Assembly (NCBI RefSeq): GCF_001457595.1
Contig: NZ_LN831039.1
Location: forward strand, 6,540,001 to 6,572,000
From: Mycolicibacterium smegmatis
GTDB taxonomy: Bacteria > Actinomycetota > Actinomycetes > Mycobacteriales > Mycobacteriaceae
Length of the DNA: 32,000 nucleotides
Direction of reading: 5' to 3'
Shown: piece after piece, positions 7,595 through 24,290 of the stretch
Layout of the letters: every line of letters starts with the position of its first letter
How positions within the stretch are numbered: the first letter of the stretch is position 1
The notes under the pieces: model-generated
Database searches by the model: none
What the model saw: the letters and a program-made list of their open reading frames with translations, nothing else
Told to the model about the DNA's origin: nothing
Position numbers and translations under genes: made by a program

Positions 7595-8146
7595 TCAGGC
7601 AGACTTGCGGCGCGCCTTGTCGGCGGCGCCCTTCTCGGTCGACTGCCCCTCGTGCGTCAGCTGGCCGCCGGCGCTCTCCAGGTGCGCCCGCACGAACCAC
7701 TGGAATTTCTCCAGCTCGCCGGCATGGGCGATGAGCAGGTCCTGTGACACCAGGTCGAGGTCTTCGAGTTTCTCGATCGACTTGCGGGTGTCTTCGATGA
7801 CGCCGTTGTACACCAGGTCGAGCGCGGCCAGGTGGGCCTGGACGGTGTCACGCTCGACGGAGTAGTCGTCCCACGTGCGGTCCTTGATGATCGCACCCGG
7901 GGTGCCCTTGGGCGACTTGCCCAGCGTCGCGATGCGCTCGGCCACCTCGTCGGCGTAACCACGCACCAGTTCGACCTGGGGGTCGATCATCTCGTGCACG
8001 CCGATGAAGTTCGGGCCCACGACGTTCCAGTGGACGTGTTTCAGCGTCAGATGCAGATCGTTGTAGGTGCTGAGCTGCTTCTGCAGCAGGTCCGCCACAT
8101 CGCTTGCCTTCTTGTCGGACAGGCCCGGAATGGTGAATGAGGTCAT
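7595..8146 (-). CDS. dps: DNA-binding protein from starved cells (Dps, ferritin-like), with a lysine/arginine C-terminal tail
   Basis: 183 aa: MTSFTIPGLSDKKASDVADLLQKQL..HVHWNVVGPNFIGVHEMID..DEVAERI..KGAADKARRKSA. The Dps ferroxidase-site residues are present. From memory the sequence matches M. smegmatis Dps1. A strong SD, aaaggagcaacgATG, precedes the start. Confidence 0.96.
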   Translation of the reverse strand: MTSFTIPGLSDKKASDVADLLQKQLSTYNDLHLTLKHVHWNVVGPNFIGVHEMIDPQVELVRGYADEVAERIATLGKSPKGTPGAIIKDRTWDDYSVERDTVQAHLAALDLVYNGVIEDTRKSIEKLEDLDLVSQDLLIAHAGELEKFQWFVRAHLESAGGQLTHEGQSTEKGAADKARRKSA

Positions 8147-9178: not shown

Positions 9179-9562
9179 TCACGCGACCGTGATCTCGGCC
9201 TTGTCGGGATAGAACGCCACGCGGCCCGCGATGTCGGCGACGGCCGGGTACGGCCGTTCGTAGGTCCAGATGGCGTCGGCGAGCGCTGCGCCCTCGGATC
9301 CGCTTCCGAATTCGAGGCTGTAGTAGTTCGCCTCGCCCTTGTACGGGCAGTAGGTCGTGGTGTCGCTGCGCCTGAGCACCGACCCGTCGACGTCGGCCAG
9401 CGGGATGTACTGCACGGGCGGATACGACGCTTCCTGCAGTGTCAGTGCGTCGTCGGTCTCGGCGATCACCGTGCCGTTCACGCGCACGGTGACATGTCTG
9501 CCGGTGGGCGTGACGGTGATGGGGTGCTCGGCGGTGGGTTCGAGGACGGGGCGAGAGGTCAT
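9179..9562 (-). CDS. DUF427 domain protein
   Basis: The ORF extends to 9604, but ATG at 9562 (MTSRPVLEP..) is the more likely start. DUF427-type block: VQYIPLADV..TTYCPYKGEANYYS..AIWTYERPYP..GRVAFY. The same block recurs in the protein at 23427..24290. Confidence 0.75.
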   Translation of the reverse strand: MTSRPVLEPTAEHPITVTPTGRHVTVRVNGTVIAETDDALTLQEASYPPVQYIPLADVDGSVLRRSDTTTYCPYKGEANYYSLEFGSGSEGAALADAIWTYERPYPAVADIAGRVAFYPDKAEITVA

Positions 9563-9696
9563 GTGAGGTCCAACGTGACGGGCCTCACCGATCTTCCGGT
9601 TCACCGCCCGACATCACGCCGAACATAATCTGGAATGACTCCAAACTTGTGGCGGAGGCCCTCCGGTGTTTGCCCCGTGATCGGTGCCACACAAGT

Positions 9697-9754
9697 TTCC
9701 TGCCACTCGACGATCAAATTCTGCCAGTGGAATTATTGCGCTGACCTGCGGGTT
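9697..9754 (+). promoter_or_regulatory. Candidate ECF-sigma promoter with upstream TGCCAC/TGCCAG direct repeat (copy 1)
   Basis: TGCCAC at 9701-9706 and TGCCAG at 9722-9727 are spaced 21 bp. GGAAT is at 9729-9733, followed by an 18-nt spacer tattgcgctgacctgcgg and GTT at 9752-9754. The start codon lies 46 nt downstream. Confidence 0.5.
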
Positions 9755-9799
9755 CTTTCAGTCAGACGCCCACAGAGAACGACCAGAAGGATCACGAAG

Positions 9800-10006
9800 A
9801 TGAAGAAGTTCGGAATTGCCGCCATCACCGCCAGCGGACTGGCCGCCGCCGTCCTGGGCCTGGCAGCCCCCGCGCAGGCCGTGCCGGCGCAGGTCGACTC
9901 GACCGTCATCTCGGCAGGCGTCGACCGCCTGCAGTGGCTGGACAAGGTCCAGCCGAAGGCCACCGCGCCGAAGGTGGACAACACGGTCCGCCACAGCGGG
10001 CGGTGA
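9800..10006 (+). CDS. Small secreted protein (68 aa; Sec signal peptide, roughly 41-aa mature part), paralogue of 11605..11829
   Basis: MKKFGIAAITASGLAAAVLGLAAPAQA|VPAQVDSTVISAGVDRLQWLDKVQPKATAPKVDNTVRHSGR. ATG is at 9800 with SD gaagga upstream. The longer track ORF from 9635 is an upstream extension through the promoter. Confidence 0.7.
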   Translation: MKKFGIAAITASGLAAAVLGLAAPAQAVPAQVDSTVISAGVDRLQWLDKVQPKATAPKVDNTVRHSGR

Positions 10007-10021
10007 CGCGTGACGTACGCG

Positions 10022-10050
10022 AGAGGGGCACCCGGTGCGGGTGCCCCTCT
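10022..10050. terminator. Perfect 12-bp GC-rich hairpin (agaggggcaccc / gggtgcccctct) followed by ttcgtgt
   Basis: Stem 10022-10033 pairs with 10039-10050 around loop ggtgc. It sits between the stop of the small gene (10006) and the stop of the convergent FAD oxidoreductase (10057). Confidence 0.75.
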
Positions 10051-10056
10051 TTCGTG

Positions 10057-11499
10057 TCAGTGCGGCTTTCGCGTGATGACGTCGGCGATCTTGGCGATCG
10101 GCGACGTGGTGGGACGGCCACCGGCCTCGTGCCGGTCGGCCAGCTTGTAGGCGATGTAGAGGCCCCGAACACCGAGCCACCGCAGCGGTTCGGGCTCCCA
10201 GTTGCGTGACCGGTGCCCGACCCAGGGCAGCTCGGTCAGCGGGGTGCTGCGGTTGCACACCAGATCAGCCAGTGTGCGTCCGGCGAGGTTGGTCGCGGTG
10301 ACGCCGTGGCCCACATATCCGCCGGCCCACCCCAGGCCCGTGGTCCGGTCGAGCACCACACTGGCCTCCCAGTCGCGCGGGACGGCCAGCACGCCGCACC
10401 ACCCGTGCGCGATGGGCACGTCACGCACCTGCGGCAGGATCGAGTGCAGCACGTCGGTGAGCAGCCGGATGGTCTTCGGCGGCACCCGGCCGTCGACGTC
10501 GGTGCGCGAGGCGTACCGGTACGGGACGCTGCGCCCGCCGATCGCGATGCGGTCGTCGACCGTGCGCTGCGCGTAGAAGAAGCCGTGCGCCGAATCGCCC
10601 ACGGTTTCGCGTCCCTGCCAACCGATCTCGTCCCACACGTGCGCCGGGATCGGCTCGGTGGCGATCATCGAACTGTTCATCGGAAGCCACGCGCGACGCT
10701 GTCCGGGCAACGCCGCGGTGAACCCCTCGGTGGCGCGCAGCACGATCGGCGCCCGAACGGTTCCGCGTGCGGTCACCGCGCGCCCCTGCGCGATCTCGGC
10801 GACCGGGGACTGCTCGTAGATCGTGACACCCAGACGTTCGACGGCCTCGGCCAGACCGCGGGCCAGCGCGGCAGGCTGGATCCGCGCGCAGTGCGGATTG
10901 TGATAGGCCGACACCAGGCCGTTGAACCGGATGCGTTCTGCTGCTTGCTCTTTGGTGAGTTCGGTGACATCGACACCCCACGACCGCTCCTCGGCGATCG
11001 AGGCCGCCAACCGCGCCGCCTGCGCCGGGTTGCGCGCGATCTCCAAGGTGCCGCCCTTGACCGCACCCGCGTCGATGCCCTCGGCCTCGGCCACCGCGAT
11101 GACCTCGTCGACGGCTTCGTTGAGCGCCTTCTGCCAGGCGAGCACCCTGTCCCGTCCGTACAGCTCGGCCATGCGGCGCCGGTCACCCGGCACCAGTCCC
11201 GACAGCCAACCGCCGTTGCGACCCGACGCCCCGAAACCGGCGAAGCGCGCCTCAAGGATCGTGATGCGCAGCGACGGATCCGCCTTCTTGAGGTAGTACG
11301 CGGTCCAGAGTCCCGTGTACCCCGCGCCGACGATGCACACGTCGGCGTCCCGGTCGCCGGGCAGCGGCGGCCGTGGCGTGGGCAGGGTGTCGAACCAATG
11401 GGAGATCTGACCGTTCACCGTGATGGGCACCGTGAGATTCTGCCAGCAGTTGCTGAAATCCCGCCGTCCGCGGATCACTTCCTGCCACCCGGCGGTCAA
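10057..11499 (-). CDS. FAD-dependent oxidoreductase (DAO family; PuuB / amine-oxidoreductase-like)
   Basis: Rossmann motif DVCIVGAGYTGLWTAYYL followed by ..FGASGRNGGW. The start is uncertain. The first 23 codons overlap the conserved promoter element of the neighbouring small gene, so GTG at 11430 (VPITVNGQISHWFD..) is a plausible true start. Confidence 0.85.
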   Translation of the reverse strand: MTAGWQEVIRGRRDFSNCWQNLTVPITVNGQISHWFDTLPTPRPPLPGDRDADVCIVGAGYTGLWTAYYLKKADPSLRITILEARFAGFGASGRNGGWLSGLVPGDRRRMAELYGRDRVLAWQKALNEAVDEVIAVAEAEGIDAGAVKGGTLEIARNPAQAARLAASIAEERSWGVDVTELTKEQAAERIRFNGLVSAYHNPHCARIQPAALARGLAEAVERLGVTIYEQSPVAEIAQGRAVTARGTVRAPIVLRATEGFTAALPGQRRAWLPMNSSMIATEPIPAHVWDEIGWQGRETVGDSAHGFFYAQRTVDDRIAIGGRSVPYRYASRTDVDGRVPPKTIRLLTDVLHSILPQVRDVPIAHGWCGVLAVPRDWEASVVLDRTTGLGWAGGYVGHGVTATNLAGRTLADLVCNRSTPLTELPWVGHRSRNWEPEPLRWLGVRGLYIAYKLADRHEAGGRPTTSPIAKIADVITRKPH

Positions 11500-11536
11500 T
11501 TCCTGCCACCGGAATTAAACCCCTGACCTGCATGTT
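11479..11536 (+). promoter_or_regulatory. Candidate ECF-sigma promoter with upstream TGCCAC direct repeat (copy 2)
   Basis: TGCCAC at 11483-11488 and 11504-11509 are spaced 21 bp. GGAAT is at 11511-11515, followed by an 18-nt spacer taaacccctgacctgcat and GTT at 11534-11536. Confidence 0.5.
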
Positions 11537-11604
11537 CAGGTAAGCATACGGCACGGATCGCACGGAATCCGAAAGCCGAAGAGCCGCCAAAAGGGAGAGA
11601 GAAA

Positions 11605-11829
11605 ATGAAGAAGTTCGGATTCGCCGCAATCGCCGCAAGCGGGTTGACCGCAGCCATCCTGGGCCTGTCCGGTCCCGCGCAGGCCGCGCCTGCGGTGGCC
11701 CCGGTGTCCACCGGTGTGGACGCCACCACCATCACCGCGGGTGTGGACCGCCTCGAGTGGCTGGACAAGATCCAGCCGAAGGCCACCGCGCCTCAGGTTG
11801 ACACCACGGTCCGCCACAGCGGCCGGTGA
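11605..11829 (+). CDS. Small secreted protein (74 aa), paralogue of 9800..10006
   Basis: MKKFGFAAIAASGLTAAILGLSGPAQA|APAVAPVSTGVDATTITAGVDRLEWLDKIQPKATAPQVDTTVRHSGR. SD is aaagggagagagaaaATG. Confidence 0.72.
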   Translation: MKKFGFAAIAASGLTAAILGLSGPAQAAPAVAPVSTGVDATTITAGVDRLEWLDKIQPKATAPQVDTTVRHSGR

Positions 11830-11841
11830 GCGGCTGCACGC

Positions 11842-11875
11842 AAAGAGGGGCACCCGGGATCGGGTGCCCCTCTTT
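11842..11875. terminator. Perfect 15-bp hairpin (aaagaggggcacccg / cgggtgcccctcttt), near-identical to the hairpin at 10022
   Basis: Stem 11842-11856 pairs with 11861-11875 around loop ggat, followed by cgtgt. Confidence 0.75.
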
Positions 11876-11896
11876 CGTGTTCGGCCGCTTCGGGTC

Positions 11897-14405: not shown

Positions 14406-14807
14406 TCACGCGCTCACCACGGTGCGGTCGCCGAGTGGCTGCTGCAGCGGGACGTCCATGGTCGCGTCGAGCGCGATCGCGATGCACATCCGGTCGGCGG
14501 CCTCGGGGCGGGTACCGACGGACAACTCGACGGTGACGGTCTCGGCGGACTCCGTGGCGACGACGTGCGCGCCGTAGCACTGCGGTGTGCCCGCAGTGAA
14601 GTTGACGCGCAGCCCCTCGCCGTTGCGGCTCCACGATTCGACGCGCGCCGGATGCTGATCGACGATCCGCGGGTTGTCGGTGAAAACCGTGCGATCAGGG
14701 TCGACGGGCACTTCGGGCACGGTGGCGGCGGCCGCGTGGGGTGCCGTCACCGTTGCCAGGAGTAAACCGGTCAACGCGGTGGTTACCACTGGACGCATGC
14801 GCACCAC
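14406..14807 (-). CDS. Secreted hypothetical protein (signal peptide, two Cys)
   Basis: M(VRM)RPVVTTALTGLLLATVTAPHAAA|ATVPEV.. carries an A-x-A cleavage motif. The start is either 14807 or ATG 14798. I recognise no family. Confidence 0.55.
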   Translation of the reverse strand: MVRMRPVVTTALTGLLLATVTAPHAAAATVPEVPVDPDRTVFTDNPRIVDQHPARVESWSRNGEGLRVNFTAGTPQCYGAHVVATESAETVTVELSVGTRPEAADRMCIAIALDATMDVPLQQPLGDRTVVSA

Positions 14808-14873: not shown

Positions 14874-15389
14874 ATGGGCAATCACGCCACGGCGATCCTC
14901 GCGGGCGGCTGCTTCTGGGGTATGCAGGATCTGATCCGCAAGCAGCCCGGTGTCGTCTCCACCCGGGTCGGCTACACCGGAGGCCAGAACGACCATCCGA
15001 CGTACCGCAATCACCCCGGGCATGCCGAGGCCGTCGAGATCGTCTACGACCCGGCACAGACCGACTATCGCGCCCTGCTGGAGTTCTTCTTCCAGATCCA
15101 CGATCCGACCACCAAGGACCGTCAGGGCAACGACGTCGGCTCGAGTTACCGTTCGGCGATCTTCTACCTCGACGAGGAGCAGAAGCGCATCGCGCTGGAG
15201 ACCATCGTTGATGTGGACGCCTCCGGACTGTGGCCGGGCAAGGTGGTCACCGAGGTGACACCGGCGAGTGACTTCTGGGAGGCCGAGCCCGAACACCAGG
15301 ACTATCTGGTGCACTACCCCAACGGCTACACGTGCCACTTCCCGCGCCCGGGCTGGAAGCTGCCGCGCCGCGAGACCGCGAACCAGTAG
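14874..15389 (+). CDS. msrA: Peptide methionine-S-sulfoxide reductase
   Basis: The GGCFWG catalytic motif is near the N-terminus ([14 protein letters not shown]), followed by ..[34 protein letters not shown]. Confidence 0.95.
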
Positions 15390-22414: not shown

Positions 22415-22978
22415 TTACGCACGCTCACCGCTCGGCACGACGAACGCGAACGGCCGGTGGAACCCCAGACCGCGCACCCGCGCACCGCGCACCGCGTCCA
22501 CCGGCACCGCCACCACCCGCCCCGACGACGGCTCGTAGCACTGCAACCGCTCCCCCGACACCCCGACGATCAACACCCAGTGCCGCGGAATACCGCGCGC
22601 GCCGACGAGCATCGCCACCGGGCGCCCCTCGGCCGCGGCGCGCAGGACATCGGTCAGCGGATCCGACGCACCGCGGAACCGGCGCCAGCGATACCGGAAC
22701 CCGGCCGAGACGCTGTGCTCACTGAGGGCCCGCGCCATCCCCGCGGGCGTGGTGCCGAGCCGGCGTGGCCAGATCGCGTTGATGTCGGAGTGGATCCGGT
22801 CCTGCTCGGCGGCGAACCATTGGCCGCCGTGTGACCCCAGCAACTTGTCACGCTTGGCAGGGTCGAGCATCACACCGGCGACGACCGCCACCGTCGGCCC
22901 ACACGTGATTCCGTCGCGCTGACGCAGCCTCAGCGCCGCGATCCGCTCGGGCTCCACATAAATCCTGTCAGCTGTCAA
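22415..22978 (-). CDS. Hypothetical protein with a papain-fold, C39-like cysteine peptidase signature
   Basis: The ordered motif is Q20-x5-C26 (RQRDGITCGPT), then H in GIPRHWVLIVGV, then YEPSSG. This matches the Gln / Cys / His / (D/E)P layout of C39-like peptidases. No signal peptide. The start is TTG 22978 or GTG 22957. Confidence 0.45.
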   Translation of the reverse strand: MTADRIYVEPERIAALRLRQRDGITCGPTVAVVAGVMLDPAKRDKLLGSHGGQWFAAEQDRIHSDINAIWPRRLGTTPAGMARALSEHSVSAGFRYRWRRFRGASDPLTDVLRAAAEGRPVAMLVGARGIPRHWVLIVGVSGERLQCYEPSSGRVVAVPVDAVRGARVRGLGFHRPFAFVVPSGERA

Positions 22979-23020
22979 TCAATTACTGCCACCTGAAATT
23001 AAATCGCTGAACTGCAGGTT
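22966..23020 (+). promoter_or_regulatory. Candidate ECF-sigma promoter with upstream TGTCAG/TGCCAC repeat (copy 3)
   Basis: TGTCAG at 22966-22971 and TGCCAC at 22987-22992 are spaced 21 bp. GAAAT is at 22995-22999, followed by an 18-nt spacer taaatcgctgaactgcag and GTT at 23018-23020. Confidence 0.45.
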
Positions 23021-23071
23021 TACACAGGCATAACAGCGACACAGCAAGCCTAGAAGAACAGGATCACCAAA

Positions 23072-23365
23072 GTGCGAAAGACAGCGAAGAGATTCGGTGT
23101 TGCGACGGTGGCAGCCAGTGGCCTGGCGGCGACCCTGATCGGCCTCGCAGCTCCGAGCCAGGCGGCCCCCAGCGGCCCCAGCAACGCCCAGCAGACCATC
23201 AGCCAGTTGCAGAGCCAGGGCTACCACGTCATCGTCAACCGGATCGGTGCGACCCCGATCGACAAGGCCGTCGTCGTGGCCGTCCGTCCCGGCACCAACT
23301 TCACCCGCACCGACAGCCTCAACACGGGCGTCACACAGAAGACCGTCTACGTCGACGTGAAGTGA
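23072..23365 (+). CDS. Small secreted protein (97 aa) whose signal peptide resembles those of the 9800 and 11605 genes, with an unrelated mature domain
   Basis: MRKTAKRFGVATVAASGLAATLIGLAAPSQA|APSGPSNAQQTISQLQSQGYHVIVNRIGATPIDKAVVVAVRPGTNFTRTDSLNTGVTQKTVYVDVK. The start is GTG. Confidence 0.7.
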   Translation: MRKTAKRFGVATVAASGLAATLIGLAAPSQAAPSGPSNAQQTISQLQSQGYHVIVNRIGATPIDKAVVVAVRPGTNFTRTDSLNTGVTQKTVYVDVK

Positions 23366-23387: not shown

Positions 23388-23427
23388 TCAGCCCCCGTCG
23401 GATTCGTCCCCCTCCGGCGGGGGCTGA
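23388..23427 (+). terminator. Stem-loop after the small secreted-protein gene
   Basis: tcagcccccg (23388-23397) pairs perfectly with cgggggctga (23418-23427), 10 bp with a 20-nt loop. A tighter alternative, ccccc/ggggg, lies inside it. Confidence 0.45.
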
Positions 23428-24290
23428 TGCATTCCAGAATGCCTTTTCCGGACTACGCCACGGGATCGCGCCGCGCCACCGATAATGGTGCGATGGCAGT
23501 CAACATGGGGGATCTGTTCGCCGCCAACCTCGAATCCCTGCGATATCAGCCGACTGCCAAGCGAATTCGCGCGTGCCTGGGCGGTGAACCCGTGGTCGAC
23601 ACGTGCGCGGCCGTCCTCGTGTGGGAGCCGCGCCGCGTCGTCCCGACGTATGCGGTTCCGCGCGCAGCCATCTCGGCGCAACTGGTTCCCGCGGGCGGCG
23701 ACCACGGCGACGACGAGATTCCCGGCTTCCTCGATCCGTCGGTCCCGTTCACCGCGCACACCTGCTCGGGCACCGGCTTCGACGTGATCGCCGGCGGCGA
23801 GAACAGCCCGTCCGCGGCGTTCACGCCCGACGATCCCGACCTCGCCGACTACGTGATCCTCGACTTCGACTCGTTCGAATGGCGCGAGGAGGACGAACCC
23901 GTGGTGGCCCATCCGCACGACCCGTTCCACCGGATCGACATCCGGCGCAGCGCGCGCCAGGTCCGCATCGAACTCGACGGGCACCTGCTCGCCGAGTCGA
24001 CGCAACCGATGCTGTTGTTCGAGACCGGCCTCCCCACACGCTTCTATCTGCCCTACGACGATGTCGTCACGCCGCTCGAGCTGAGCCAGACCGTCACCTT
24101 CTGCGCCTACAAGGGGCGCGCGAGTTACTACTCGGTGCCCGACGGACCCGCCGACATCGCGTGGACCTATCACGAACCGCTGCACGACGCGGTTCCCGTT
24201 CGCGACCGCATCTGCTTCTTCGACGAGCGTGTCGACGTCGTGGTCGACGGGCAGCACCAGAGCCGCCCGGTCACACCGTGGAGCGATTGA
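23427..24290 (+). CDS. Tandem DUF427 domain protein
   Basis: The C-terminal half, RFYLPYDDV..TVTFCAYKGRASYYSV..IAWTYHEPL..DRICFFDERV, parallels the single-domain protein at 9179..9562. The N-terminal half is a degenerate copy. The start is uncertain, with ATG candidates at 23427, 23439, 23493 and 23505. Confidence 0.72.
   Translation: MHSRMPFPDYATGSRRATDNGAMAVNMGDLFAANLESLRYQPTAKRIRACLGGEPVVDTCAAVLVWEPRRVVPTYAVPRAAISAQLVPAGGDHGDDEIPGFLDPSVPFTAHTCSGTGFDVIAGGENSPSAAFTPDDPDLADYVILDFDSFEWREEDEPVVAHPHDPFHRIDIRRSARQVRIELDGHLLAESTQPMLLFETGLPTRFYLPYDDVVTPLELSQTVTFCAYKGRASYYSVPDGPADIAWTYHEPLHDAVPVRDRICFFDERVDVVVDGQHQSRPVTPWSD

Follow-up and report, generated by a model that had tools for sequence, protein, structure and literature searches.

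A SigH-type promoter core with phased upstream repeats, shared by cassettes of small secreted-protein genes in Mycolicibacterium smegmatis and its relatives

Three small genes in a 32,000-nucleotide (nt) stretch of DNA from Mycolicibacterium smegmatis (contig NZ_LN831039.1, positions 6,540,001 to 6,572,000; ‘the window’ in what follows) share a promoter of the kind recognized by extracytoplasmic function (ECF) sigma factors, set in a longer conserved block that includes two phased direct repeats. The genes, here termed genes 1, 2 and 3, are listed with their promoters and other features in Table 1. All three products begin with MKKFG or KRFG, followed by a hydrophobic core and then AxA, and are predicted to carry Sec-type signal peptides; these are clear in each case, in keeping with the first-pass annotation of the window, which took the genes to encode small secreted proteins. 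Genes 1 and 2 are paralogues belonging to family A (55-75 amino acids, aa), and gene 3 belongs to family B (~100 aa), which comprises at least 1346 clusters at 90% identity. Searches of Pfam and NCBIfam with the three window products returned no matches. The homologues in both families are all annotated as hypothetical, and where the species is named, it belongs to Mycolicibacterium or is a rapidly growing Mycobacterium. The gene 3 product carries the UniProt label ‘PASTA domain-containing’. Its predicted structure, one helix and four strands, has a predicted local distance difference test (pLDDT) score of 60 overall and 63-79 in the mature part; the top Protein Data Bank (PDB) matches are the PASTA domains of PknB and PBP2x, at E 0.5-2, which is not significant, and we rejected the assignment.

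A terminator-like hairpin follows each gene. The hairpins after genes 1 and 2 are near-identical (GAGGGGCACCC-loop-GGGTGCCCCTC, then TTTCGTGT), which indicates that the duplication behind these genes took in promoter, open reading frame (ORF) and terminator together; a consensus terminator scan missed both. Since each of the three genes has its own promoter and a strong hairpin, each is a monocistronic cassette.

The annotation had described an element common to the genes starting at 9800, 11605 and 23072, and all of its parts lie where it had placed them. Each copy comprises a distal and a proximal TGCCAC-like hexamer, a -35 element and a -10 element, GTT. Every copy has 18 nt between -35 and GTT, and in every copy the start of the proximal hexamer is 21 bp from that of the distal one. 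The proximal hexamer abuts the -35, as had been noted, with a gap of 1-2 nt and in fixed register with GGAA. Alignment of the copies shows the element to be larger than this. The conserved stretch is ~55-75 nt long, with unalignable DNA on either side, and the repeat unit exceeds the hexamer, reading roughly TTnCTGCCAsC. Between the repeats is an AT-rich block, and between -35 and -10 is a further conserved sequence that we term the ‘spacer box’.

Table 1. Positions of the three cassettes, their parts and two anchoring genes in the window (putative transcription starts are those suggested by conservation across the family)
Feature	Position	Strand	Remarks
Gene 1, MSMEG_6470 orthologue	9800-10006	+	68 aa; predicted signal peptide MKKFGIAAITASGLAAAVLGLAAPAQA; family A
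Gene 2, MSMEG_6472 orthologue	11605-11829	+	74 aa; paralogue of gene 1; family A
Gene 3, MSMEG_6498 orthologue	23072-23365	+	97 aa; family B; predicted helix + beta-sheet, weakly PASTA-like
Copy 1 distal repeat CTGCCAC	9700-9706 (TGCCAC 9701-9706)	+	~-64 to -58 from putative +1 at 9764
Copy 1 AT-rich block ATCAAATT	9713-9720	+	between repeats; family consensus CGaTCAATT
Copy 1 proximal repeat CTGCCAG	9721-9727 (TGCCAG 9722-9727)	+	1 nt from -35; 21 bp from distal repeat
Copy 1 -35 GGAAT	9729-9733	+	extended form GGAATTAT to 9736; family consensus GGAATTAA
Copy 1 spacer box CTGACCTGC	9741-9749	+	family-specific; -23 to -15
Copy 1 -10 GTT	9752-9754	+	46 nt before ATG 9800
Copy 1 TCAGA	9762-9766	+	putative transcription start A9764
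Copy 2, whole	11482-11536	+	CTGCCAC 11482-11488, CTGCCAC 11503-11509 (TGCCAC 11483, 11504)
Copy 2 core		+	GGAAT 11511-11515, CTGACCTGC 11523-11531, GTT 11534-11536, ATG 11605
Copy 2 GCATA	11544-11548	+	putative start A11546; aligned with copy 1 TCAGA
Copy 3, whole	22965-23020	+	CTGTCAG 22965-22971, CTGCCAC 22986-22992 (TGTCAG 22966, TGCCAC 22987)
Copy 3 core		+	GAAAT 22995-22999 ((T)GAAAT 22994-22999), CTGAACTGC 23007-23015, GTT 23018-23020, GTG 23072
Copy 3 GCATA	23028-23032	+	putative start A23030
Terminator-like hairpin after gene 1	10022-10057	+	-33.6 kcal/mol, z -6.6, then UUUCGUGU
Terminator-like hairpin after gene 2	11845-11880	+	-31.9 kcal/mol, z -5.9
Terminator-like hairpin after gene 3	23389-23427	+	-35 kcal/mol, z -5.6
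Dps gene	7595-8146	-	anchors region near MSMEG_6467 to MSMEG_6498
msrA	14874-15389		anchors region near MSMEG_6467 to MSMEG_6498

The three copies are not attributable to chance. Their shared core, GRAATTA-N5-CTGAMCTGC-NN-GTT, has exactly three matches in the window even when up to three mismatches are allowed, and none in 100 shuffles. It is this extended conservation that confers significance, and not the bare -35 and -10; GGAAY-N18-GTT is insignificant alone, with three window matches versus 0.88 expected. CTGCCAS occurs 21 times in the window (11.2 expected), and the phased hexamer pair, at up to one mismatch, four times (the three copies exactly, plus one site with a single mismatch; 1.6 expected). 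A scan for sigma-70-type consensus promoters between 9500 and 12100, a region that includes copies 1 and 2, found no plus-strand match inside either cassette. Its one plus-strand match is at 9600-9629, ~130 nt upstream of the cassette, and the alternative promoter reading comes down to a weak minus-strand match, at copy 1 only. Visual inspection of the three copies revealed no TANNNT hexamer on the downstream side of GTT.

The promoter core, the stress induction of the genes and their assignment to SigH are already published (PMC5430705). In that work, Hillion et al. (2017) sequenced RNA from M. smegmatis 30 min after exposure to 1 mM sodium hypochlorite (NaOCl). MSMEG_6470 rose 3970-fold (M 11.95; the third row of the induction table), MSMEG_6472 898-fold (M 9.81) and MSMEG_6498 427-fold (M 8.74). 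All three rank among the most strongly NaOCl-induced genes, and all are labelled SigH (Tables S5-S7 of PMC5430705; ‘Table S7’ below always refers to this paper). The promoters given in Table S7 are GGAATTATTGCGCTGACCTGCTGGTT for MSMEG_6470, with the -10 at -46 from the start codon, GGAATTAATCCTCTGACCTGCATGTT for MSMEG_6472, with the -10 at -68, and GAAATTAAATCGCTGAACTGCAGGTT for MSMEG_6498, with the -10 at -52; the last is identical to copy 3. In the window, the distances from -10 to start codon are 46, 69 and 52 nt, and the cassette promoters differ from those of strain mc2155 at variable spacer positions only. The coordinate frame is validated by the msrA promoter P1 of Table S7 (GGAGTAAACCGGTCAACGCGGTGGTT), which maps exactly to 14759-14784, 90 nt before msrA. 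The first-pass annotation had read GGAAT-N18-GTT as an ECF promoter, and had supposed the three genes to be co-regulated by one alternative sigma factor, which it left unnamed. The -35 and -10 that it picked out are those of the published SigH promoters, the published induction values confirm the co-regulation, and the published assignment supplies the name, SigH.

The sequences agree with this assignment in most respects. The SigH consensus in Mycobacterium tuberculosis, obtained by chromatin immunoprecipitation sequencing and rapid amplification of cDNA ends, is GGAAYR-N17-18-GTT (PMC4803200). The SigH-type -35, GGAAY, appears as GGAAT in copies 1 and 2, as GAAAT in copy 3, and as GGAAT or GGAAAT across the family described below; GTT, expected 17-19 nt after the -35 pentamer, follows it by 18 nt in the copies and by 18-19 nt family-wide. 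The published read stacks begin downstream of the -10 (PMC5430705). That SigH drives the core of the three promoters is, then, supported by the published assignment, which combines motif, induction and read stacks.

The element extends far beyond the window. We scanned one genome per species with the pattern TGCCA-N2-3-GRAAY-N7-CTGNNCTGC-NN-GTT, and obtained at least 120 loci, nearly all in Mycolicibacterium or unclassified Mycobacterium, and often several to a genome. At least 118 family copies were found in this way; about seven of the 131 matches listed, in unrelated bacteria, look like chance. The family consensus is TTyCTGCCAnC-N5-CGaTCAATTnCTGCCAsCGGAATTAAnCCcCTGAcCTGCnnGTT(T/C)AAnCnnTCAGA. 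Several parts of it are conserved although they lie outside the search pattern: the distal hexamer (present in 118 of the 131 matches listed), TCAATT, and TCAGA, ~10 nt after GTT, the CA of which is conserved in the family at 8-12 nt from GTT. The 75 nt have a high information content throughout, the distal repeat, TCAATT, TAA and TCAGA included; in the flanks and the leader it is low. Of 149 distinct family copies, 138 have a distance of 21 bp between the starts of the repeats, and eight have one of 22 bp.

In 23 copies, a minority class, there is an additional A, GGAA(A)T, and the spacer is 19 nt long instead of 18. The repeats are here as far from GGAA as in the majority, and the spacer box is as far from GTT; a change of 1 nt in length is tolerated solely between GGAA and TTAA. 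Such split registers are to be expected if a spacer of 18-19 nt links two blocks, one containing the -35 and the other the -10. Copy 3, like these 23, is better read as GGAA+A, with a 1-nt insertion within the -35/spacer, than as having a longer gap after the proximal hexamer.

Within 40-115 nt of almost every copy there is a small downstream ORF that begins in the manner of MKKFGFATI.ASGLAAAvLGLAAPAqA. Behind this common signal peptide the mature parts fall into at least five unrelated short families, families A and B of the window among them. The cassette also occurs in tandem arrays (loci L099, L041 and L054). We considered whether the element might be a conserved divergent promoter, and rejected this because the arrays are co-directional. 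A second conserved block, outside the window, occurs in the leaders of 29 family-B genes, 20-60 nt before the start codon. It reads GTC(G/A)AAACCGCG(C/A/T)GA(C/T)nCGCTCCACGGCTC(C/A)GACCC...CAGGGAAGAGCA, is found at loci L009, L014, L018-L020, L025, L028, L034, L036, L050, L052, L054, L059, L066, L074, L078, L082, L084, L096, L099, L105, L106, L121 and L122, and may be a leader RNA or a translational control element.

Homologues reached through the protein show which parts of the element are kept most strictly. Orthologues of gene 3 in M. phlei, in M. rutilum and at locus L130 (CP050191.1) retain the repeats, GGAA(T/C), TGAnC, GGTTT and CA, while their flanks diverge and details of the spacer box vary (e.g. 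CTGACCACC or TTGACCTGA). In a soil-metagenome sample of 61 distinct upstream regions of family-B homologues, the core promoter is present in at least 51. Among these 51, TGA is present in the spacer of 49, the proximal repeat in 42 and both repeats in 38; nine have neither repeat. These counts rank the core promoter and spacer TGA first in conservation, and the repeats second, and the nine promoters without repeats mark the repeats as a separable accessory module. The element is kept from one species to the next, unlike the leader beside it, and this argues for selection on it rather than mere descent.

Set against other SigH promoters, the additional sequence appears peculiar to the cassette. 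When the SigH/SigE promoters of Table S7 were searched for the spacer box (as CTGACCTGC, CTGAACTGC or CTGAGCTGC), it was found only in the three cassette genes and dnaK. Because it is confined to these, the repeats, TCAATT and the box would seem not to be general SigH determinants; the Table S7 sequences begin at -35, and the comparison covers the region from there on. The mc2155 dnaK SigH/SigE promoter (GGAACAAATCCTGACCTGCGCCCGTT) also contains the 9-mer CTGACCTGC between -35 and -10, but displaced by 2 nt towards the -35. Two other listed SigH promoters, those of MSMEG_3680 (GGAATGAAATCTCTGAGCAGGGAGTT) and MSMEG_4499 (GAAATTAATGCCGCCACCTGCAGGTT), are partly similar and resemble diverged cassette copies; MSMEG_3680 and MSMEG_6498 are both among six genes with higher expression in a glnR mutant under nitrogen starvation.

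The explanation we favour, and consider probable though by no means assured, is that a SigH-type core is enclosed in a self-contained cassette by a family-specific ‘shell’, the repeats of which serve an accessory DNA-binding protein. Each copy is complete in itself, with its promoter, its short leader, its ORF for a small secreted protein and its terminator hairpin. The core would be a SigH-type ECF promoter, with -35 GGAAT(T), a spacer of 18-19 nt and -10 GTT, from which transcription would start at the conserved CA ~10 nt further on. During ordinary growth the promoter is presumably silent, to judge from the size of the induction. Oxidants such as hypochlorite would inactivate the anti-sigma factor RshA, and the SigH thus freed would bring RNA polymerase to the promoter, whereupon the three genes rise 400- to 4000-fold, as in the published RNA sequencing, with SigH as the presumed agent. 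The shell, apparently under purifying selection, consists of the direct repeats TTnCTGCCAsC, which begin at about -64 and -43, two helical turns apart, of TCAATT between them, and of the CTGAcCTGC box inside the spacer, with the repeats in register with GGAA and the box in register with GTT. Binding of an accessory regulator is the most likely role of the repeats, and we propose it with moderate confidence: they would be docking sites on one face of the helix, beside sigma region 4, for a protein that acts as a class-II-like co-activator, or as a gate that tunes SigH-dependent firing or adds a signal to it. Cassettes of this kind have spread across Mycolicibacterium, carrying many different mature peptides behind one conserved signal peptide.

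A number of observations weigh against this explanation. The published assignment to SigH was made from the consensus GGAAY-N18/19-GTT, the induction and the downstream read stacks, and not with a sigH mutant (PMC5430705); a literature search found no work on these genes with sigH mutants or in-vitro transcription. At position 6 of the -35, where a purine is optimal for SigH, each of the three copies has T, as does the family consensus, GGAATT. No start is given for the three small genes in the log- and stationary-phase data of Li 2017, which do list the divergent gene MSMEG_6471; in the accessible part of the Martini 2019 start sites, too, the leaderless start of MSMEG_6471 is the only one found. 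As to the accessory protein, no regulator gene recurs among 1013 clustered ORFs neighbouring the loci of the genome scan, a motif search of all 1.15 Mb of DNA around the loci revealed no ECF sigma genes, and a literature search for a regulator that binds CTGCCA found none. Full-text searches for MSMEG_6470 and MSMEG_6472 likewise found nothing. The repeats, moreover, are dispensable for a functional promoter, judging from the homologues that keep the core without them. Nor is the shell needed for high induction, since among other SigH-only promoters without it MSMEG_0094 is induced 8538-fold; MSMEG_3012, too, shows induction equal to or higher than that of the cassette genes (PMC5430705).

A rival proposal is that no extra protein is involved and that repeats, TCAATT and box are contacts, or features of DNA shape, read by RNA polymerase itself (by the alpha C-terminal domains, by sigma region 4 or through spacer geometry) so as to make an exceptionally strong SigH promoter. 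The fixed registers, of repeats to GGAA and of box to GTT, are consistent with this, as is the rank of the three genes among the most induced in the genome. In the range -40 to -60, where UP elements have A/T tracts, the AT-rich TCAATT occupies about -51 to -46, where UP-element subsites lie; but it is flanked by repeats that are GC-rich, unlike UP elements, and the distal repeat at -64 is beyond the usual sigma contacts. With MSMEG_0094 and MSMEG_3012 as strongly induced or more so without repeats, and nine of 51 homologues having the core alone, we find the proposal possible but doubtful. If the repeats and box do bind a protein, it might be a repressor, for which they would be operators that hold the cassette silent pending a second signal, the in-spacer site blocking polymerase. 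A conserved box between -35 and -10 is in the classic repressor position, and the units of the form CTG(C/A)C, three similar ones at intervals of 21 and 20-21 bp, share one helical face. Basal expression must be very low for the fold changes to be so large, and the silence of the Li 2017 data fits the same picture. Against this, SigH-only promoters without the box display fold changes that are equally large; the box varies (CTGACCACC, GTGATCTTG) while the repeats remain unchanged, which is at odds with one protein reading all three units; and no linked regulator gene was found among the loci. We think repression unlikely.

An equally unlikely reading keeps the architecture and changes the sigma factor: SigE, or an additional SigH-like ECF sigma whose anti-sigma factor is also oxidant-sensitive, in place of canonical SigH (MSMEG_1914). 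In M. tuberculosis, SigH prefers a purine at -35 position 6, and SigE a pyrimidine, although T is tolerated (PMC4803200). The T of the cassette means that SigE, or an M. smegmatis paralogue of SigH, could contribute; NaOCl also activates RseA/SigE, 36 promoters are read by both sigmas, and the published assignment was made in silico (PMC5430705). However, T at position 6 is shared by several other M. smegmatis promoters listed as SigH, T at position 5 is characteristic of the SigH-only class in Table S7, where SigE-type promoters have GGAAC, and the induction is on a par with that of the strongest SigH-only genes. It is quite improbable, in our judgement, that the copies resemble one another through shared descent only, by recent duplication or gene conversion, with just GGAAT and GTT being functional. 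Genes 1 and 2 are indeed paralogues with near-identical terminators, and tandem arrays do occur. But in paralogues and across species alike, the leader from +15 to the start codon and the DNA above -70 are unalignable while the 75 nt between are nearly invariant; copies occur in many species and before at least five families of mature protein; and the differences between the window and mc2155 fall on variable positions only. To the idea that the block is a transcribed cis-regulatory RNA, a leader or a riboswitch, we give practically no credence. It is a highly conserved non-coding block upstream of genes, as such RNAs are, but the window has no Rfam match at gathering thresholds, the conserved units are direct and not inverted repeats, and in the published data the read stacks begin beyond the -10.

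The favoured explanation, a SigH-type core with accessory sites, has parallels among known systems, none of them complete. The SigR promoter of Streptomyces is GGAAT-N18-GTT. The cassette is like SigH- and SigE-type (PMC4803200, PMC5430705) and SigR-type ECF promoters of actinobacteria in its -35 GGAAT, its -10 GTT, its spacer of 18-19 nt and its induction by thiol-oxidative stress. It is unlike the other SigH promoters of Table S7, a table that starts at -35, in having the spacer box, and it has phased upstream repeats and a conserved start region besides. Compared with the M. tuberculosis SigH optimum, it has T and not a purine as the sixth base of the -35.

In geometry, the cassette has tandem phased sites, 21 bp apart, the proximal one 1-2 nt from the -35. 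The I1-I2 sites of AraC, and those of XylS at Pm, are 21-bp direct repeats in which the proximal site touches the -35. The Dev boxes of DevR/DosR are likewise two similar sites ~21 bp apart on one face, with the proximal site abutting or overlapping the -35 (PMC3177182). The likeness is one of geometry alone: the DevR, AraC and XylS site sequences are unrelated to CTGCCAsC, and these proteins work with primary-type sigmas (XylS also with sigma-32 and sigma-38), whereas the partner in the cassette would be an ECF sigma. Sites of the OmpR/PhoB family are also direct repeats upstream of, or overlapping, the -35, and in that family they are bound by activators. M. tuberculosis PhoP recognizes 7-bp repeats with a 4-bp spacer (PMC4832192). 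The cassette differs from this 11-bp periodicity in having one of 21 bp, with the unrelated CGaTCAATT at the half-way position, and its arrangement is not pho-box-like. BldC-like AATTNNNNC repeats were also tried; the fit was loose, with units 15-22 bp apart and not contiguous, and we rejected them as uninformative.

In genomic organization the closest parallels are of other kinds. BldN of Streptomyces is the ECF sigma for the chaplins and rodlins. As in the BldN regulon, an ECF sigma would preside here over many small signal-peptide genes, although the sigma group, the promoter motif and the biology differ (development there, oxidative stress here). The vlp and vsp genes of Mycoplasma share a conserved promoter and, at the 5' end, a conserved signal peptide, but diverge in the mature parts. 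The cassette is similar in placing one promoter and signal peptide before many mature sequences, but is regulated by a stress sigma and bears no sign of phase variation or lipoprotein processing.

The neighbourhood of the cassettes has some features of its own. Divergent to gene 2 is the flavin adenine dinucleotide (FAD) oxidase gene MSMEG_6471, which is leaderless and starts at 11430 on the minus strand according to two published data sets (mc2155 position 6536660 corresponds to window 11430, minus strand). A third TGCCAG, at 11441-11446, overlaps the -10 region of this oxidase gene and precedes the distal repeat of copy 2 by exactly 42 bp (2 x 21). Near copy 1 there is an additional TGCCAC, at 9685-9690. 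Directly abutting the -35 of msrA P1 is TGCCA, at 14754-14758, in a register that differs from that of the cassette. DUF427 genes adjoin copy 1 (9179-9604, minus strand) and copy 3 (23427-24290, plus strand), and the pairing of small gene and DUF427 gene recurs in M. phlei, in M. rutilum and at locus L130 (CP050191.1); the DUF427 loci are L127, L129 and L130. MSMEG_6469, a DUF427 gene homologous to Rv0140, is induced 11-fold by NaOCl and listed as SigH/SigE* (PMC5430705). Its Table S7 promoter has no match in the window strain at up to three mismatches. Between gene 1 and gene 3, mc2155 has 28 genes by locus-tag/accession numbering, versus ~16 ORFs counted in the 13 kb of the window; the window strain may lack a segment that is present in mc2155.

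We have found no earlier description of the repeats and their phasing, of the spacer box, of the conserved start region or of a cassette of promoter and signal peptide that spans the genus. Together they form a block of ~75 bp that is almost unchanged across the genus, and that stands before more than 1000 90%-identity clusters of uncharacterized secreted mini-proteins. As a compact promoter, tightly off and very strongly inducible, the cassette could serve as a mycobacterial expression tool. If the repeats bind a factor, they would provide a rare example of an ECF-sigma promoter under the control of an activator or gate. More tentatively, we suggest that the CTGCCAsC repeats, alone or together with the spacer box, might define a subclass of SigH promoters that depend on a co-regulator, a dedicated DNA-binding protein docked at sites two helical turns apart beside an ECF sigma, in a geometry like that of AraC/XylS or DevR. 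This protein might gate a genus-wide and rapidly diversifying set of small secreted proteins, an extracytoplasmic arm of the mycobacterial oxidative-stress response. The secreted products would point to an extracellular part of the SigH response.

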